Assembly: GCF_045037415.1 (NCBI RefSeq)
Contig: NZ_CP173438.1
Origin: Escherichia coli
GTDB taxonomy: Bacteria > Pseudomonadota > Gammaproteobacteria > Enterobacterales > Enterobacteriaceae
Reading direction: 5' to 3' (one strand)
DNA length: 64,000 nucleotides
Shown in pieces: positions 38,277 through 54,298 of the stretch. The translations under genes and the position numbers were made by a program. The notes under the pieces were generated by a model. That model was not told the origin of the DNA. It did not search any database and worked only from the letters and a program-made list of their open reading frames with translations. Numbering within the stretch: the stretch's first letter is position 1; every line of letters begins with the position of its first letter.

Positions 38277-39440
38277 TTACTTTTGGTTGTCGATTCTGGT
38301 GAGAGCAACCAGCAATGCCAGCGTATAACACACCGTAATTGCCAGACTCATTTTTAACAGTGTTTCTCCGCCAATTCCCGACAATGGCGCGGCTATACCG
38401 CCGAAGACAAACATGCTCATCCCCATCAACGCAGACGCCGTTCCAGATTCCTGCGTCCCTACTGCACTCATAGCCTCTGCCCCGCCAACAGTGCCGATGC
38501 CGCTACAAAATGCGATGGTGAAAAATAATGCCACCAGTGCCGGAATGGGCAATTGTATCCATGCGCATAAGACCGTGAGCAATGCACACAAAATTGCCGC
38601 TATCAGGCCACCTCGCAACAATGTCATCGCGTTAATCCGTCGCGCCAGGCGCGAGAAGATCCATGAAGCAATGATAAGTCCGGTGCCGTTAAGGCCAAAC
38701 ACCAGGCTAAATTGCATTGGACTAAAGCCAAATTCCTTCTGCAACACGAACGACGAAGAGCCGATATATGCAAACAAACCGGCCAGCATAAAACTTTGAA
38801 TCAGGCAAAAGCGCATAAAACGGCGGTTCTGCACCACGCTTCGTCCGGTTAATAGCAATGATGAGCCCCTTTTATTTTCTGGCAAGGTCTCATGAATAAA
38901 TAACAGACAGCCCAGCAACAGTACGGTGCTAATTTCAGCCATTACCCAGAATAAAGTGCGCCAGTCAAAAGTGCTAACAATGTACCCGCCCAGCACTGGC
39001 GACAACACCGGTGCCAGGCCATTCACCGTCATTAACAGCGCAAAAAACTGGGTCAACGTTACTCCCTGATATTTGTCACGAGCAATAGAACGAGAGAGCA
39101 CCGAACCACCCGCCCCCGCGATCCCTTGAATAAAACGCCAGACCACCAGCCAGTAAATATTGTTCGTTGTCGCGCATAAAATGGAAGAAACAATAAACAA
39201 TAGCAACGACAAGATTAACGGACGTTTACGCCCTATTTTGTCGCTCAGAGGGCCAAATAACAGTTGTCCGACGCCAAGACCAATCAGTGATGCGGTCAGG
39301 GTTAATTGCGTTATGGTCGTGGTTGCCGCCAGTTGCTCAGACATCTCCGGCAAAGCCGGCAAATAAAGATCGGTACACATCGGGCCGATACCGGCTAAAA
39401 GACCAAGAATCAATGCCCATGAAAGAGAGACTCTAGCCAT
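38277..39440 (-). CDS. MFS drug:H+ antiporter, Bcr/CflA (DHA1) family
   Basis: 387-aa ORF; about 12 predicted TM helices; MFS motif A GPLSDKIGRKRP; N-terminus resembles Bcr. Confidence 0.8.
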   Translation of the reverse strand: MARVSLSWALILGLLAGIGPMCTDLYLPALPEMSEQLAATTTITQLTLTASLIGLGVGQLLFGPLSDKIGRKRPLILSLLLFIVSSILCATTNNIYWLVVWRFIQGIAGAGGSVLSRSIARDKYQGVTLTQFFALLMTVNGLAPVLSPVLGGYIVSTFDWRTLFWVMAEISTVLLLGCLLFIHETLPENKRGSSLLLTGRSVVQNRRFMRFCLIQSFMLAGLFAYIGSSSFVLQKEFGFSPMQFSLVFGLNGTGLIIASWIFSRLARRINAMTLLRGGLIAAILCALLTVLCAWIQLPIPALVALFFTIAFCSGIGTVGGAEAMSAVGTQESGTASALMGMSMFVFGGIAAPLSGIGGETLLKMSLAITVCYTLALLVALTRIDNQK

Positions 39441-39448
39441 ATTATTCC

Positions 39449-40822
39449 TTACTTGAGTGATGACATACCGCCGCCCAGCGACTGCCAGAGCGTGATTCGG
39501 TTTGTAAAATCAGTCAGTTGCAGTGCCAGCAGCTCCTGCTGTGCGCTCCACAAGCTGCGCTGCGCCGTCAACACGGTCAGGTAATCACCAACACCCGCCT
39601 GATAGCGACGCAAGCCAACATCGACCGTTTGTTGTTCAGCTTTAACATACTGGCGCTGTGCATCCAGTTGCTCTTCAAGCGTGGTCCGCCGCGCCAGTGC
39701 GTTAGCGACATCTTTAAATGCGCTCTGAACGGTTTTTTCATAGGTGGCAATGAGTCCACGCTTTTGTGCTTCTGCGTAACGAAGCTGCGCCAGATTACTT
39801 CCGCCAGTAAACAGCGGTAATGTGACCGATGGCGCAAATGACCAGATCTGCATTCCGTGGCTGAACAACGACGACAACGCGTCACTGCCAACACCGGCAC
39901 TGGCAGTCAGCGAAATCGTCGGGAAAAAGTTAGCCCGCGCCGCGCCAATATCTGCATTGGCGCTCTTCAAATTATGTTCCGCTTCCTGGATATCCGGGCG
40001 ACGCAGCAGAACATCAGATGATACTCCCGCAGGAACCAGACTTATCATTTGTTCCGGCAGGCTTTCCAGTGTTCCCGGTAGCAGATTTTCCGCAAGCGTT
40101 GTACCTGCCAGTAAGTTCAGCGCATTTTTATCCTGCATCACTTGTGTCTGATAGCTGGCAACGCTGGCGCGCGCTTGCTGATAAACACTCATCGCCTCAC
40201 TGACATCTGTCGCTGCCGCCGTGCCAACCTGTTGCTGGCGCTGGATAATTTTCAATGAGTTTTCTGCACTGGCCATCGTTTCTTTTGCCAGGGCCAGGTT
40301 GCTGTTATCAGCCGCCAGTGTCAGCCAGGCGGTGCTGATTTCAGCAATCAGCGTTAAACGAGTGTTCTGGGCTGTAAATTCACTGGCAAGCCAGGTTTCC
40401 CGCGCCGCCCGAGATAAACTCTGATTACGACCAAACAGATCTAACGTATAACTGGACACCGTGCCGTCAGCCTCGGCAGTTGTTCCCGTACCATTCGCCA
40501 GCGAACGGCTGCGGGTCGAACTTAAGGCCGCATTCACCGTCGGAAATAACGACGCATTAGTTTGCCCATAGAGCGCCCGTGCTGAGTCAATATCAGCAAT
40601 CGCTTTTTGCACATCGCGGTTACTGTTCAGTGCAATGGTTACTACCTGCTGCAATCGGGGATCGTGGATCACCTGCTGCCAGTCATGGCTGATTGCCTTC
40701 CCCTGGCCCTGTGCTCCCGGCAAGGTCGCCGGGATTGGGGATTCAGGCGTACTGTAGTGAGGATCGAGCGAGACACATCCCGCACTCAACAACACCAGAA
40801 AAATAAGAGAACGACGCAACAT
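39449..40822 (-). CDS. Outer-membrane efflux lipoprotein (OMF, NodT/OprM family)
   Basis: 457-aa ORF; lipobox LLSAGC; two coiled-coil/TolC-like repeats. Confidence 0.85.
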   Translation of the reverse strand: MLRRSLIFLVLLSAGCVSLDPHYSTPESPIPATLPGAQGQGKAISHDWQQVIHDPRLQQVVTIALNSNRDVQKAIADIDSARALYGQTNASLFPTVNAALSSTRSRSLANGTGTTAEADGTVSSYTLDLFGRNQSLSRAARETWLASEFTAQNTRLTLIAEISTAWLTLAADNSNLALAKETMASAENSLKIIQRQQQVGTAAATDVSEAMSVYQQARASVASYQTQVMQDKNALNLLAGTTLAENLLPGTLESLPEQMISLVPAGVSSDVLLRRPDIQEAEHNLKSANADIGAARANFFPTISLTASAGVGSDALSSLFSHGMQIWSFAPSVTLPLFTGGSNLAQLRYAEAQKRGLIATYEKTVQSAFKDVANALARRTTLEEQLDAQRQYVKAEQQTVDVGLRRYQAGVGDYLTVLTAQRSLWSAQQELLALQLTDFTNRITLWQSLGGGMSSLK

Positions 40823-40825
40823 AAC

Positions 40826-43800
40826 TTACTCCTGACGGCGCGGTTTACCGGCAAACAAACGTTTCACCAGTACAAAAAACAGAGGAACGAAGAAAATGGC
40901 CAGTAATGTAGCGGTCAGCGTGCCGCCAATAATGCCCGTACCAATGGCGATGCGGCTGTTCGCCCCTGCGCCGGTTGCTATCGCCAGCGGCATTACCCCC
41001 GCAATAAACGCCAGCGAGGTCATGATGATTGGGCGTAAACGAGTCTGCGCCGCGCGTAATGCCGCACGACTCAAGGAATAGCCCTCTGCAACCGCCGCTT
41101 CAGCAAATTCCACAATCAGAATGGCGTTTTTCGACGACAAGCCGATAGTAGTTAATAGCGCTACCTGGAAGTAAACGTCGTTGTTTAAATCACGCATCCA
41201 GGCCGCCAGCGCCGCGCCAAGAAGCCCCAGAGGGATCACCAGAATGACCGAGAACGGGACTGACCAGCTTTCGTACAGTGCTGCAAGGCAGAGGAAAACC
41301 ACCAGAATAGAAACTGCATACAGACTTAATGCCTGACCGCTGGCCAGTTTCTCCTGCAATGACAAACCACTCCAGGCCCAGGTTGTTCCCGCAGGAAGAC
41401 TGTTTGCCAGTTCCTCCATTTTTGTCATTGCATCGCCGGAACTAAAGCCAGTCGCGTTTTCGCCCTGAATTTCATAGGCTGCCGAGCCGTTGTAGCGCAC
41501 CAGTCTTTCCGGTCCATACAGCCAGCGGGTGGTCGCAAAAGCAGAGAATGGTGTCATGGCGTTATCGCTGCCGCGCACAAACCATTTACCTAAGTCTGAC
41601 GGCGCGGAACGAAATTCGCTGTCGCCCTGAATGTAGACTTTTTTCACACGACCACGGTCAATAAAGTCATTCACATAAGTACCGCCCCACGCACTGGACA
41701 GGGTGTCGGTGACATCATTCAAACTCAACCCTAATGACACCGCTTTATTACTATCAATATCTACCTGCAATTGCGGCATTTGTGGCAAATCATTGGCGCG
41801 TACAGAATGTAACTCCGGACTTTGATTCGCTTTTTCTATCAACTGATTACGCATTTGCAGCAGTGTTTCACGATCGGTTCCACCGTTAGCTAACAATTCA
41901 AACGTAAAACCATTGCTTTGGCCCAGCCCATCAACGGCTGGCGGCGTCATCGCAAATACCGTGGCATCACGAATTGTGCCCAGCTCTTTGGTTGCCCGTA
42001 GGGCGATAGCCTGGGCGGTGTTTTCTGCCCCTTTACGTTGAGACCAGTTTTTCAACGAAACAAACGCCATCCCGGTGTTCTGTCCGCTACCGCTAAAACT
42101 GAAACCATCAACGGTAAAGATGACATCGGTATTTGCTTTCTCGTTAATCAGGAACCAGTCAACAATCTGGCGATTCACTTCTGCTGTACGGGCAGCGGTC
42201 GCCCCGGCCGGCAGCGTGTACTGCACCATGATTTCGCCCTGGTCTTCAGTGGGTAAGAAACTGCCCGGCAGTTTCCACATCATCAGGGCCATTCCACCAC
42301 CCAGCACGACATAAAGCCCCATCGTTCGGGCTGCACGGCGCAGGACATAAATTACGCCTCGCTGATATTTATCTTCAGTACGGCGGTAAAAGCGGTTAAA
42401 TGCGCCGAAAAAGCCTTTTTTATGTGGTGGAACATGCTGGAGGACGGAACCGCACAGGGCGGGAGTCAAGGTCAATGCCACCACCACGGAAAGCAGCATT
42501 GCGGAGATGATGGTGATGGAGAACTGACGATAAATTACCCCCGTAGATCCCCCAAAGAAGGCCATCGGCAGGAATACGGCTGACAACACCAGCGCAATGG
42601 CAACCAGTGCGCCAGAAATCTCGCCCATTGATTTTTCCGTGGCTTCACGCGCGGGCAACCCTTCGTCACGCATAATGCGTTCGACGTTCTCTACCACCAC
42701 AATGGCATCGTCCACCAGCAAGCCGATCGCCAGCACCATTGCAAACAACGTCAGGGTATTAATCGAATAGCCAAACAACGCAAGAACGCCGAATGTGCCC
42801 AGCAAAACGACGGGGACAGCTAACGCCGGAATCAGTGTGGCACGCAGGTTTTGCAGGAATAAATACATCACGCAAACCACCAATACGATGGCTTCAAACA
42901 GCGTCTGAATTACGTCCTCTACGGAGATTTTAATAAATTCAGTGCTGTCTTTCGGGTATGCGATGTCGTATCCCTGCGGCATGTTCCGCTGGAATTCGGC
43001 AATCTTATCCTTGACCAGCGTCGCCGTATTCAGCGCATTCGCACCGGGCGAAAGCATTACAGCAACCCCGGCAGACGGGTGACCGTTAAGTTTGCCGATA
43101 GCGGTATAATCTTCACTGCCCATCTCAACGCGAGCCACATCTTTTATACGAACAACTGCGCCGTCTGACTGGCTTTTCACGATAATATTTTTGAACTGAT
43201 CCACCGTCTGCAAGCGAGACTGCGCACGTACCGTTGCGGTCAGTTGCTGAGTATCCGGTGAAGGCAATGCCCCTATTTTCCCGGCAGTAACCTGCACGTT
43301 TTGCGCTTCAATAGCACTTTGCACGTCTGAAGGCATCAGCGAGTAAGACGCCAGTTTGGCCGGGTCAAGCCAGATGCGCATAGCGTATTCCGCGCCAAAG
43401 ACTTGCAGACTCCCCACACCTTCAACACGCGCCAGCGGGTCCTGAACGTTACTGACCAGCCAGTCGGCGATATCCGAACTGGAGGCTTTGTCAGTGGTGT
43501 CATACACGGCAGCAATCAGCAAAAAGTTGCTTTGTGATTTCTCCACCGTAACACCCGTTTGCTGCACTTCGCTGGGTAGGCGCGACTCCGCCTGCTGAAT
43601 TTTATTCTGCACCTGAACCTGTGCAGTATCTGGATCGGTACCTTGTTCAAAGGTCACATTAATACTGACCGAACCATCAGAGCTACTGGTTGAGCTGAAA
43701 TAGAGTAAATTATCAAGCCCAGTGAGTTGTTGCTCGATAACCTGAGTCACGCTGTTCTCCAGCGTTTCGGCAGAAGCACCAGTATAAGTGGCTGAAATTT

Positions 43801-43933
43801 TAATGGTCGGCGGTGCAACGTCAGGATATTGCGCGACGGGCAATGTGCGAATAGCCAGAATCCCTGCCAACATAATCAAAATGGCGATAACCCAGGCAAA
43901 GACCGGGCGGCGAACAAAAAAGCGCGAAAACAT
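40826..43933 (-). CDS. RND multidrug efflux transporter (HAE1 family, AcrB/MexB-like)
   Basis: 1035-aa ORF; N-terminus MFSRFFVRRPVFAWVIAILIMLAG and overall motifs closely parallel AcrB but not identical; 12-TM RND architecture. Confidence 0.9.
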   Translation of the reverse strand: MFSRFFVRRPVFAWVIAILIMLAGILAIRTLPVAQYPDVAPPTIKISATYTGASAETLENSVTQVIEQQLTGLDNLLYFSSTSSSDGSVSINVTFEQGTDPDTAQVQVQNKIQQAESRLPSEVQQTGVTVEKSQSNFLLIAAVYDTTDKASSSDIADWLVSNVQDPLARVEGVGSLQVFGAEYAMRIWLDPAKLASYSLMPSDVQSAIEAQNVQVTAGKIGALPSPDTQQLTATVRAQSRLQTVDQFKNIIVKSQSDGAVVRIKDVARVEMGSEDYTAIGKLNGHPSAGVAVMLSPGANALNTATLVKDKIAEFQRNMPQGYDIAYPKDSTEFIKISVEDVIQTLFEAIVLVVCVMYLFLQNLRATLIPALAVPVVLLGTFGVLALFGYSINTLTLFAMVLAIGLLVDDAIVVVENVERIMRDEGLPAREATEKSMGEISGALVAIALVLSAVFLPMAFFGGSTGVIYRQFSITIISAMLLSVVVALTLTPALCGSVLQHVPPHKKGFFGAFNRFYRRTEDKYQRGVIYVLRRAARTMGLYVVLGGGMALMMWKLPGSFLPTEDQGEIMVQYTLPAGATAARTAEVNRQIVDWFLINEKANTDVIFTVDGFSFSGSGQNTGMAFVSLKNWSQRKGAENTAQAIALRATKELGTIRDATVFAMTPPAVDGLGQSNGFTFELLANGGTDRETLLQMRNQLIEKANQSPELHSVRANDLPQMPQLQVDIDSNKAVSLGLSLNDVTDTLSSAWGGTYVNDFIDRGRVKKVYIQGDSEFRSAPSDLGKWFVRGSDNAMTPFSAFATTRWLYGPERLVRYNGSAAYEIQGENATGFSSGDAMTKMEELANSLPAGTTWAWSGLSLQEKLASGQALSLYAVSILVVFLCLAALYESWSVPFSVILVIPLGLLGAALAAWMRDLNNDVYFQVALLTTIGLSSKNAILIVEFAEAAVAEGYSLSRAALRAAQTRLRPIIMTSLAFIAGVMPLAIATGAGANSRIAIGTGIIGGTLTATLLAIFFVPLFFVLVKRLFAGKPRRQE

Positions 43934-45054
43934 CAGGCGTTGCCTCCATTAGCCTGAACTTCAACAGCCTTGACGGTCTGCCCTGAAGTGACTTTGGCAG
44001 AACCTTCAACAATCAGTCGGTCGCCGTTGTGCAGGCCGTTCAGCACCAGCCATTTATCACCATACGTTTCTCCCGTTTCGAGCGTTCGCTGCTCTACTTT
44101 ATTGTCTTTATTCACCACCAGCGCAGTTGCATTGCCTTTAGCATCGCGCGTAACGCCCTGTTGAGGCGCGAGAATAGCGTTTTCCATCACGCCTTCATCG
44201 ACACGAGCGCGAACAAACATTCCCGGTAATAACTGCTGTTGTGGATTGGGGAAAATTGCCCGTAATATCACCGAACCGGTAGACTCATCCACCGCGACTT
44301 CGGTGAGTTCCAGACGCCCTTTTTCGCTGTAGGTTGTGCCATCTTCCAGAATAAGTGAGACGCTCATGGTGTCACTGTTGGTCGCCAGTGACTGTTTACG
44401 CAGACGTAATAAATCGACACTGGAGCGAGTGAGGTCGACATACATTGTATCCAGACCACGAATAGTCGTTAACGCTGTATCCTGCGACGCGGTCACCAGT
44501 GCGCCAGGGGTTACCGACGAAATACCAATACGCCCCGAAATCGGTGCGGTTACCGTGGTCCAGTCAAGATTAATGCGCGCAGTTTCCAGTGCGGCTTTTT
44601 TCGCCTCTACACTGGCTTTATCTTGTGCACAGGTAGACTGAGCATCATCAGCATCCTGTTGTGAAACACCATTCTCTTTCACCAGTCGGGCATAACGCTG
44701 CGCTTTCTGGCAATCGGCTTTTACCAGTGCCTGTGCTTGTTGTAATGCTGCCCGGGCTTCATTCCATGCAGCCTGATAACTGGCCGCATCAATCTGGTAG
44801 AGAGGCTGTCCAGCCTTGACCAGATCACCTTCCTTAAATAAGCGTTTCTGGATAATTCCCCCAACCTGCGGACGTACTTCAGCACTGAGCGCAGCACTGG
44901 TGCGTCCGGTTAATTCACTGACTACCGAAACCGGTTGAGATTTGAGCGTAACAACGCCGACTTCTGTTTCTGACGGGGATGAATTGTTACTTTGCGTATT
45001 ATCACAACCCGATAAGAGCAGCATTGCCACTACAGATGTTGCTATATACTTCAT
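43933..45054 (-). CDS. RND periplasmic adaptor (membrane fusion protein, AcrA/MexA-like lipoprotein)
   Basis: ORF 43933..45087; start placed at MKYIATSVVAMLLLSGC (ATG 45052-45054, preceded by GGAG SD); 1-nt overlap with the RND start. Confidence 0.85.
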   Translation of the reverse strand: MKYIATSVVAMLLLSGCDNTQSNNSSPSETEVGVVTLKSQPVSVVSELTGRTSAALSAEVRPQVGGIIQKRLFKEGDLVKAGQPLYQIDAASYQAAWNEARAALQQAQALVKADCQKAQRYARLVKENGVSQQDADDAQSTCAQDKASVEAKKAALETARINLDWTTVTAPISGRIGISSVTPGALVTASQDTALTTIRGLDTMYVDLTRSSVDLLRLRKQSLATNSDTMSVSLILEDGTTYSEKGRLELTEVAVDESTGSVILRAIFPNPQQQLLPGMFVRARVDEGVMENAILAPQQGVTRDAKGNATALVVNKDNKVEQRTLETGETYGDKWLVLNGLHNGDRLIVEGSAKVTSGQTVKAVEVQANGGNA

Positions 45055-45138
45055 TATTTTCTCCAGGGTGAGAAATACCCTCCTCATTGAAATTAATGAG
45101 GATATGTCAGGGATATTCAGTTATAACGAACCCGCATC

Positions 45139-45154
45139 GCGAAATGAATTTCGC
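45139..45154. promoter_or_regulatory. Candidate repressor operator upstream of the adaptor-RND-OMF-MFS genes
   Basis: Palindrome GCGAAATGAATTTCGC (7+2+7) about 85 bp upstream of the adaptor start codon. Confidence 0.4.
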
Positions 45155-45164
45155 AATGAAATAA

Positions 45165-45182
45165 GGGGGATTAATATCCCCC
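45165..45182 (-). terminator. Hairpin downstream of the TetR-family gene (possible attenuating terminator before the pump genes)
   Basis: GGGGGAT-taat-ATCCCCC inverted repeat about 20 bp after the TetR stop, followed on the minus strand by TTATTT. Confidence 0.5.
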
Positions 45183-45202
45183 GCTATTGGTTAATTCTGT
45201 TC

Positions 45203-45769
45203 TTATTTATTTATCAACATACTAACAATATCCTGATATATTTCCTGCAGATGTTGTGGATCGCTTTTTTGCGGTGTTAAACGACGATAAACCGTACCTT
45301 CCATCATGGTAGCAAACACTTCAACGCAGCAACGAATGTGCTCGTCGCTAAGATGGGGATGCATTCTTTTCATATGTGCACAACCGTTAGCGAACATTCT
45401 GGCGTCAGCTTCTTCAAGCATTGCCATAACCCGCGGGTTGCGTGTGGCTTCTGCAGCCACTTCCAGCATCAGCGCGTCGTCGTCCTCATTTAAGGATTTA
45501 CGCAAGGCAAGGACTTCCGGGAAGTGATCGGTACGCGCGTCAATGTCCATTTGGGCAATACGAAAGTCGATGATACGGCGAACCATCTCTTCAATAATGG
45601 CGTCTTTGTTGGCGAAGTAACGATATATCTGACCCACGCTAAGCTGAGCTTCGCTGGCAATTTGCGACATACTGGCGGCATGAAATCCGCAGCGACGAAA
45701 ACACCGACGGGCGGCGTTAATGATTTCATCCTGACGCTGTTTGTGGCGTATCTCCAGCTTGCTGGTCAT
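45203..45769 (-). CDS. TetR-family transcriptional regulator (probable repressor of the adjacent efflux genes)
   Basis: ORF 45203..45868; start placed at MTSKLEIRHKQRQDEI (ATG 45767-45769, AGGAGA SD) because the longer N-terminus would begin upstream of the predicted promoter; TetR HTH (MSQIASEAQLSVGQIYRYF). Confidence 0.8.
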   Translation of the reverse strand: MTSKLEIRHKQRQDEIINAARRCFRRCGFHAASMSQIASEAQLSVGQIYRYFANKDAIIEEMVRRIIDFRIAQMDIDARTDHFPEVLALRKSLNEDDDALMLEVAAEATRNPRVMAMLEEADARMFANGCAHMKRMHPHLSDEHIRCCVEVFATMMEGTVYRRLTPQKSDPQHLQEIYQDIVSMLINK

Positions 45770-45795
45770 TTCTGTCTCCTGGCCTATCACTTGGT

Positions 45796-45827
45796 GAGAA
45801 TGATCATTCTCATTTTTGCTAATTATA
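45796..45827 (-). promoter_or_regulatory. Candidate promoter -10 with overlapping palindromic operator for the TetR-family gene
   Basis: Minus strand: TATAAT at 45822-45827, then 10 bp, then perfect 16-bp palindrome GAGAATGATCATTCTC (45796-45811), about 27 bp before the start codon. Confidence 0.5.
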
Positions 45828-46246
45828 CGTTTCTCCAAAGTAATGGAAAGTATTTTTATCTTATTCATGATGCATATTCTGATAATGAAGAGATTGTGGA
45901 GATTCTGTGAAGATAGTTGACAATATTAAGTTGGAGTCAATTCATCAGAAAGACAGCGACTTGTTGTCGCCAGTTCTGTTTTCATCATTAAACTTATAGG
46001 AGCTAATACGAATAGTTTCAAAGTCAGATTCTATAAGATATTTCCCCAACCTCCCCCTTGCAGGCGTCAGGAGTAGATAACGCAAAATGCTCTGTACCGC
46101 AGCTTCTCTCCGCTACAGAAAGCGCAACTATAGCCACCCACAGCCAGGTTGATTATAATAACCGTTTATCAGTTCGTACTGTTTACTAAAACGACGAATC
46201 GCCTGATTTTCAGGCACAACAAGCATCAACAATAAGGATTAAAGCT

Positions 46247-47035
46247 ATGGGTTTTCTTTCCGGTAAGCGCATTCTGGTAACCGGTGTTGCCAGCAAACTG
46301 TCCATCGCCTACGGTATCGCTCAGGCGATGCACCGCGAAGGAGCTGAACTGGCATTCACCTACCAGAACGACAAACTGAAAGGCCGCGTAGAAGAATTTG
46401 CCGCTCAATTGGGTTCTGACATCGTTCTGCAGTGCGATGTTGCCGAAGATACCAGCATCGACACCATGTTCGCTGAACTGGGGAAAGTTTGGCCGAAATT
46501 TGACGGTTTCGTACACTCTATTGGTTTTGCACCTGGCGATCAGCTGGATGGTGACTATGTTAACGCCGTTACTCGTGAAGGCTTCAAAATTGCCCACGAC
46601 ATCAGCTCCTACAGCTTCGTTGCAATGGCAAAAGCTTGCCGCTCCATGCTGAATCCGGGTTCTGCCCTGCTGACCCTTTCCTACCTTGGCGCTGAGCGCG
46701 CTATCCCGAATTACAACGTTATGGGTCTGGCAAAAGCGTCTCTGGAAGCGAACGTGCGCTATATGGCGAACGCGATGGGTCCGGAAGGTGTGCGTGTTAA
46801 CGCCATCTCTGCTGGTCCGATCCGTACTCTGGCGGCTTCCGGTATCAAAGACTTCCGCAAAATGCTGGCTCATTGCGAAGCCGTTACCCCGATTCGCCGT
46901 ACCGTTACTATTGAAGATGTGGGTAACTCCGCGGCATTCCTGTGCTCCGATCTCTCTGCCGGTATCTCCGGTGAAGTGGTCCACGTTGACGGCGGTTTCA
47001 GCATCGCTGCAATGAACGAACTCGAACTGAAATAA
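46247..47035 (+). CDS. fabI: Enoyl-ACP reductase (NADH) FabI
   Basis: 262-aa ORF; recognised sequence [40 protein letters not shown]. Confidence 0.95.
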
Positions 47036-54174: not shown

Positions 54175-54270
54175 TCGTAAATAAATGTCGATTATCGACT
54201 CGCAATTATAATACGCTTGATTCTGTTCAGTACGAAATAACTGAATAATACACACAGTAAAATATTCGAA

Positions 54271-54298
54271 AGCCACGGATATATCCGTGGCTTTTTAT
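54271..54298. terminator. Bidirectional terminator between convergent osmB and yciH
   Basis: Perfect 22-bp palindrome AGCCACGGAT-AT-ATCCGTGGCT followed by TTTTAT. Confidence 0.7.

Follow-up and report, generated by a model that had tools for sequence, protein, structure and literature searches.

Repressors with a helix-turn-helix (HTH) domain that act on drug efflux are well known from AcrR/acrAB and TetR/tetO. As with EefR, the subject of this work, these regulators are encoded beside the efflux gene, bind a palindromic operator in the promoter and regulate their own expression. The genes for AcrR and TetR are, however, divergent from those they control, while eefR occupies the promoter-proximal position in its own operon, and the operator sequences are unrelated. 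QacR of Staphylococcus aureus, like EefR, is a TetR-family repressor of a multidrug exporter. Its operator at qacA, IR1, is an inverted repeat located downstream of the −10 element and over the transcription start, and not between the −35 and the −10. IR1 is much longer than the EefR operator and is bound by a pair of dimers, and the two sequences are unrelated. In addition, qacR is divergently transcribed and, unlike eefR, does not head the pump operon.

At the protein level, EefR is only distantly related to AcrR, since it reaches 33.5 bits in NCBIfam against a cut-off of 271, and the AcrR structure 3lhq is found among its weak sequence matches (E = 1.9e-4). Its best sequence match in the PDB, and closest relative with a solved structure, is UidR/GusR (PDB 6ayi, E = 1.4e-12), which has also been reported as the closest characterised TetR regulator, with 21% identity (Shen et al, Virulence 2025; PMC12482432). 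UidR/GusR controls glucuronide catabolism and not efflux, and its likeness to EefR lies mostly in the DNA-binding domain.

EefR itself has been studied in E. coli ATCC 35218, where an 18-bp palindrome, TGAGAACGATCATTCTCA, was described upstream of eefR (Shen et al, 2025; PMC12482432). In that work, purified EefR shifted a 129-bp probe in electrophoretic mobility shift assays (EMSA), with specific competition, and the shift was abolished by deletion of the palindrome and by single- or multiple-base changes, the substituted positions of which are not given in the main text. Wild-type EefR repressed a PeefR-gfp fusion, whereas the S1 and S2 mutants (V45, R50 region) failed to do so. RT–PCR across all junctions indicated that the five eef genes are co-transcribed, and deletion of eefR increased the transcripts of eefA to eefD 27- to 83-fold by qRT–PCR (83-fold for eefA). 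Derepression arose from HTH mutations and a deletion, and not from induction. The same authors described functional EefR as a protein of 188 aa with Val45 and Arg50 in helix α3, and their −35, −10 and start of PeefR, shown in a figure, were only predicted. Described elsewhere as the seventh RND system of E. coli, eefRABCD is found in phylogroups B2, D, E, F, and G only (Pugh et al; PMC12817139).

The eefRABCD locus and the start of eefR

The sequence analysed here is a stretch of 64,000 nucleotides of E. coli DNA, referred to below as the window. The locus under study is the E. coli accessory operon eefRABCD, located between sapF and fabI, as identified by the gene order tetR–MFP–RND–OMF–MFS between these two genes. 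The five co-oriented genes replace ycjD, which K-12 carries at this place (RefSeq annotation of an identical locus), and Pfam and NCBIfam agree with the families of the encoded proteins. All of them are on the minus strand. The regulator gene eefR (45203..45769) is followed by eefA, encoding the RND periplasmic adaptor (43933..45054; NCBIfam RND_mfp and RefSeq), and eefB, encoding the RND permease (40826..43933; NCBIfam TIGR00915 at 1553 bits and RefSeq). The outer-membrane factor gene eefC (39449..40822) and the MFS exporter gene eefD (38277..39440), the last of the operon, were placed by mapping the RefSeq annotation onto the window. A segment of 1.3 kb around the operator site is present with 98–100% identity in 2034 of 5426 complete E. 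coli genomes, while the remaining genomes match only from window position 46124 on, i.e., on the fabI side. Position ~46124, about 120 bp upstream of fabI, marks the junction of the accessory eef segment with the core shared with K-12, and just inside this core we noticed a promoter-like TAGCCA-17-TATAAT for fabI (46131–46159).

The original prediction, made from the sequence alone, assigned the regulator gene to the TetR family and considered that the long N-terminal extension of its open reading frame is not translated, and both assignments hold. The TetR_N HTH domain (PF00440, E = 2.8e-15) covers residues 16–62 of the 188-aa protein, which correspond to residues 49–95 of the long ORF. The latter, taken from a mechanical ORF list, has 221 aa and begins at 45868, whereas the ATG of the short form lies at 45769..45767 (minus strand). 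RefSeq WP_000202113.1 has the coordinates of the short ORF, all the orthologues aligned (about 21–22) begin within three residues of the short start, and the in-frame ATG at 45868 is missing, or its frame is closed by a stop, in other Escherichia representatives. Moreover, the ATG of the long ORF would be outside the eefR transcript because it lies upstream of the −35. We therefore rejected the 221-aa form, which lacks conservation and starts upstream of the promoter, and annotate eefR as a 188-aa TetR-family repressor on the basis of PF00440, the RefSeq entry and the orthologue alignment.

EefR is 99% identical to a cluster of 188-aa proteins with 1296 members. It did not reach any curated equivalog cut-off in Pfam or NCBIfam: the best NCBIfam match was BetI, but with 54.5 bits against a cut-off of 201.3, and membership in the BetI, AcrR, and MtrR equivalogs was rejected as the scores were far below the respective cut-offs. 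The recognition helix L43–F52 is invariant in orthologues down to 58% identity, and this includes V45 and R50, which were altered in the derepressed mutants described previously (PMC12482432). This invariance matches that of the operator arms described below.

The operator and its promoter

Direct reading of the sequence bears out the perfect 16-bp palindrome originally proposed at 45796–45811, GAGAATGATCATTCTC. This is only the core of the element, however, as the full palindrome extends to 18 bp, TGAGAATGATCATTCTCA, at 45795–45812 (minus strand), and its length had thus been understated. No other exact copy of TGAGAATGATCATTCTCA exists within the 64-kb window, and a scan with TGAGAA-N6-TTCTCA, the motif upstream of eefR, likewise returned a single match without mismatches, at the same position. 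We describe this element as the EefR operator, consisting of two TGAGAAYGA half-sites, based on the scan, on its conservation and on the EMSA published for a one-base variant. The published eefR EMSA primers, given in the supplement, match window positions 45770–45788 and 45879–45898 exactly, so that the 129-bp probe corresponds to 45770–45898 and contains the palindrome. The Discussion of the same paper writes the motif as TGAGAAN5TTCTCA, but its own sequence and MAST query have six central bases; N6 is the correct spacing.

To judge the palindrome against chance, we scanned for perfect palindromes and used Markov-1 random sequences of 64 kb as the null. Perfect palindromes of at least 18 bp were present in 26% of these random sequences (~0.3 expected per window), and thus the length of the element is unremarkable by itself. 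The element stands out from chance through its location within a ~100-bp promoter, together with its conservation upstream of 80 orthologues. The longest perfect palindrome in the window is another one, the 26-bp AAAGCCACGGATATATCCGTGGCTTT at 54269–54294, which is probably a bidirectional terminator since the genes that flank it, osmB and yciH, are convergent (mapped from the annotated locus).

Read along the minus strand, the promoter region consists of TTTCCA, a 16-bp spacer, TATAAT, TAGCAAAAA, the palindrome, and 25 nt that include GGAGA, followed by the ATG at 45769. Promoter scan and conservation point to TATAAT (45822..45827, minus strand) as the −10 of PeefR and to TTTCCA (45844..45849, minus strand), preceded by an A-tract, as the −35; with the 16-bp spacer, this arrangement matches 10 of 12 positions of the sigma-70 consensus in the promoter scan. 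The TATAAT is separated by 10 nt from the 16-mer, as had been claimed, and by 9 nt from the 18-mer. The distance to the start codon, first given as about 27 bp, is 26 nt by our count from the 16-mer and 25 nt from the 18-mer. The Shine–Dalgarno sequence GGAGA (45775..45779, minus strand), located 5 nt before the eefR ATG, was assigned by sequence reading, and GGAG-type sequences are found at the equivalent place in orthologues. Judging by the position of the −10, transcription would start ~7 nt after it (45814..45816, minus strand), and a start near 45815 would place the operator at about +4 to +21. The overlap between palindrome and promoter is correct in the sense that the palindrome lies within the promoter and over the predicted start site, but in this strain the −10 and −35 hexamers themselves are not overlapped.

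The promoter of the original prediction is supported by the conservation of its −10 and −35 across lineages. A TATAAT-like hexamer lies beside the operator in practically every lineage. A perfect TATAAT was found in 51 of 81 sequences and five of six positions in 22 more (73 of 81 with at least five of six), always from −1 to +14 bp upstream of the operator and in all but one case within +12. The gap between the two elements is 9–10 bp in Escherichia, Raoultella, and Kluyvera, and 0 bp in Serratia and Brenneria. In Enterobacter and Leclercia, we observed a gap of −1 bp, the last T of TATAA(T) being the first T of TGAGAA; the loci of this type are L016, L020–L022, L024, L025, L027 (an unclassified MAG), L066, and L077. 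By sequence comparison, the operator of the Enterobacter/Leclercia-type loci is shifted relative to the predicted start site, with both elements retained. TTTCCA or TTTTCA at a 16-bp spacing is common to Escherichia, Raoultella, Kluyvera, Lelliottia, Enterobacter, and others, and an A-tract precedes this −35 across Enterobacteriaceae. The position of the operator downstream of a conserved −10 strongly suggests that the bound repressor would clash with RNA polymerase.

The operator in the window is not identical to the one published. Locus, gene order, 188-aa repressor, and TGAGAA-N6-TTCTCA arms are the same as in ATCC 35218, but one central base differs from TGAGAACGATCATTCTCA (TGAGAATGATCGTTCTCA on the plus strand of the window), and it is the T at position 7 that makes the palindrome of the window perfect. 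With allele-specific 40-nt megablast queries, which are unable to seed if the central base differs, we counted 705 complete E. coli genomes with the perfect allele and 1289 with the published one. The published assays thus used the commoner allele, and an effect of the position-7 change on binding appears unlikely, because this base is a pyrimidine in all 80 species examined (T in 45, C in 35). In addition, the dyad of the operator contains GATC (45802–45805), a Dam methylation site shared by the two E. coli alleles and most Enterobacteriaceae, whereas Serratia, Erwinia, and Pantoea have GAAC or AAGC at this place. We consider it doubtful that the central polymorphism changes the affinity of EefR and that Dam methylation affects binding, so as to set lineage-specific pump levels; if this were true, basal or replication-coupled levels of EefABC and EefD would differ among pathogenic lineages. 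Both features are more likely neutral, since T and C are about equally frequent at position 7 and the GATC is not conserved outside Enterobacteriaceae.

Conservation across Enterobacterales

For comparative footprinting, 22 orthologues (58–100% identity) were aligned, and the alignment was used to fetch 80 species-representative loci from at least three families of Enterobacterales (Escherichia, Raoultella, Kluyvera, Enterobacter, Lelliottia, Leclercia, Kosakonia, Phytobacter, Cedecea, Erwinia, Pantoea, Mixta, Serratia, Brenneria, and Lonsdalea). Every orthologue is preceded, at no more than 250 nt, by TGAGAA-N6-TTCTCA with at least 9 of the 12 arm positions matching, and in 35 of the 80 the match is perfect. 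In a control scan over the initial 253 nt of each gene's coding sequence, no score was higher than 8 of 12. In 32 eefR–eefA loci, aligned on the motif, the operator columns carried 1.86 bits on average versus 0.35–0.63 in the flanks. Positions G4, A5, A6, C11, T14, and C15 were invariant in 80 of 80 loci, position 7 was always a pyrimidine and position 12 a purine in all but one (79/80). The refined consensus for Enterobacteriaceae, TGAGAAYGATCRTTCTCA, is valid across Enterobacterales.

Some lineages carry a longer version of the site. A perfect 22-bp palindrome, TGAGAATGAACGTTCATTCTCA, was found in L045, L067, L068, and L080 (Erwinia sp., Brenneria, a Serratia marcescens strain, and Lonsdalea), and with one change in L073 (Lonsdalea). 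These 22-bp sites are located ~95–100 nt upstream of the regulator gene (55 nt in L045) and can be viewed as a pair of GAA-N6-TTC sites shifted by 4 bp relative to each other, while most Serratia carry TGAGAATGAACGTTCRCA. Both the 22-bp site and the Serratia form may reflect a different stoichiometry, for example two dimers. In L067 and L068, an RND operon is found upstream in divergent orientation.

The gene content downstream of the operator also varies. An eefA gene after eefR was seen in no more than 36 of the 80 loci, practically all of them from Enterobacteriaceae. An EefR orthologue and its operator followed directly by an EefD-like MFS gene (45–68% identity), without eefABC, were observed in Erwinia, Pantoea, Mixta, Serratia, Brenneria, and Lonsdalea, and also in some Kluyvera and Kosakonia (loci L012, L013, L026, L028, and L032–L082; see, e.g., L069 2441–4252). 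From this distribution, operator–eefR–eefD looks like the older unit, into which eefABC would have been inserted later.

A further element lies in the spacer between eefR and eefA (45055–45202, minus strand; 148 nt), which can form three hairpins with an MFE of −47.3 kcal/mol (z = −3.4). The first one, GGGGGAUAUUAAUCCCCC followed by UUAUUUCAUU, resembles an intrinsic terminator and lies 20 nt past the eefR stop codon. A comparable hairpin with a T-run was found at the equivalent place in 29 of 37 eefR–eefA sequences (36 fetched loci plus the window), and hairpins 1 and 2 show compensatory changes across genera. These observations suggest that regulator and pump genes are separated by a conserved element, either a leaky terminator or a processing site, and this may have a bearing on a published comment that pump phenotypes require sequences upstream of eefA. 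With such a terminator-like, leaky hairpin after eefR, the operator may not be the only determinant of eefABCD control. A search of 44900–46300 against Rfam returned no known RNA family at E ≤ 1. We also considered a second EefR site before eefA, at 45069–45086, and rejected it: it has one mismatch, at the invariant T14, it is not conserved in orthologues, and near-matches of this kind occur in the window at chance level (4 vs. 2.08 expected). It is moreover contained in the eefR–eefA spacer fragment used as the non-specific competitor probe in the published EMSA (window 45055–45200), which did not compete.

Repression by EefR and alternative explanations

We conclude, with a probability of roughly 93%, that the palindrome is the single EefR operator of eefRABCD, through which both eefR and eefABCD are repressed. 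This mechanism is already known for the exact locus. The proposal that the palindrome is an autoregulatory operator of the TetR-family gene agrees with the published EMSA, competition, deletion, point mutants and PeefR-gfp data (PMC12482432), which at the same time extend it, since the regulated target is not just eefR but the whole eefRABCD operon.

Other explanations fit the data less well. A chance feature of AT-rich intergenic DNA could be entertained in view of the frequency of such palindromes in random sequences of this size, but its probability is negligible, because direct binding has been published (PMC12482432) and the element, set between flanks that have almost fully diverged, is conserved beside the regulator in 80 species from at least three families. 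A Fur box, or the site of another global regulator, either instead of the EefR operator or superimposed on it, is suggested by the half-site GAGAATGA, which resembles GATAATGA in the Fur consensus; aligned to GATAATGATAATCATTATC, the site scores 13/19 at best, a value reached by only 12 of 488 segments of 131 nt across the 64 kb. We nevertheless regard this as very unlikely. The half-sites are 3 bp closer than in a Fur box, with a symmetry of 9-0-9 instead of 9-1-9, and the similarity is lower elsewhere, with 12/19 for the major allele of E. coli and 10–11/19 for the commonest operator types of other genera. Furthermore, the invariant G of GAG and C of CTC are exactly the positions that depart from the Fur consensus, and EefR alone accounts for the published RNA-seq and EMSA results.

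Alternatively, the palindrome could act at the RNA level and not as protein-binding DNA, folding into a hairpin within the 5′ UTR of eefR that influences transcript stability or translation: with a start near 45815, it would be transcribed entirely and could form a 7-bp stem with a GAUC loop. Several lines of evidence leave little room for this. Compensatory changes are absent from the arms, whose sequence is fixed, and the symmetric pair that does vary, positions 7/12, displays no preference for pairing (T/G 24, T/A 20, C/A 25, and C/G 10), whereas covariation is seen in the spacer hairpins of these loci. The first base of the Enterobacter palindrome is already part of the −10, which would leave the left arm largely upstream of the inferred start and untranscribed, and point mutations in the DNA abolish protein binding in vitro (PMC12482432). 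Finally, H-NS spreading over the AT-rich fabI–eefR region might be the main silencer, with a minor role for the palindrome. The intergenic region between eefR and fabI (45770–46246) indeed has 38.6% GC compared with 50.1% for the whole window, and H-NS silences eefABC in Klebsiella aerogenes, according to the passage in which PMC12817139 cites that work. Against this, a deletion of eefR is by itself enough to raise expression of the operon 27- to 83-fold in E. coli (PMC12482432), and the authors of PMC12817139 considered H-NS silencing unlikely so near the essential fabI promoter. As the main silencer, H-NS is therefore very unlikely in our view, but it could provide a second layer of eef control.

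Taken as the EefR operator, the palindrome would be bound at its two TGAGAAYGA half-sites by an EefR dimer, a stoichiometry that we infer, through the invariant HTH. With the operator directly downstream of the −10 and over the predicted start, bound EefR would probably block either initiation or escape of RNA polymerase. Repression keeps eefR, by negative autoregulation, and eefA, eefB, eefC, and eefD at a low basal level, and loss of EefR binding derepresses the whole operon, the published cases being HTH mutations. By analogy with the TetR family, EefR may also be released by a ligand.

Operator, promoter, and start codon had all been called correctly from the sequence alone, for a mechanism that had been published already. 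What is new here is the cross-genus operator consensus, the two-allele polymorphism, the support from conservation for the promoter and the short start, and the evidence for operator–eefR–eefD as a conserved core. Phylogroups B2, D, E, F, and G, the sole carriers of EefABC in E. coli, cause most invasive infections, and the loss of EefR binding at a single operator can raise resistance to several drug classes if AcrB is absent or inhibited.
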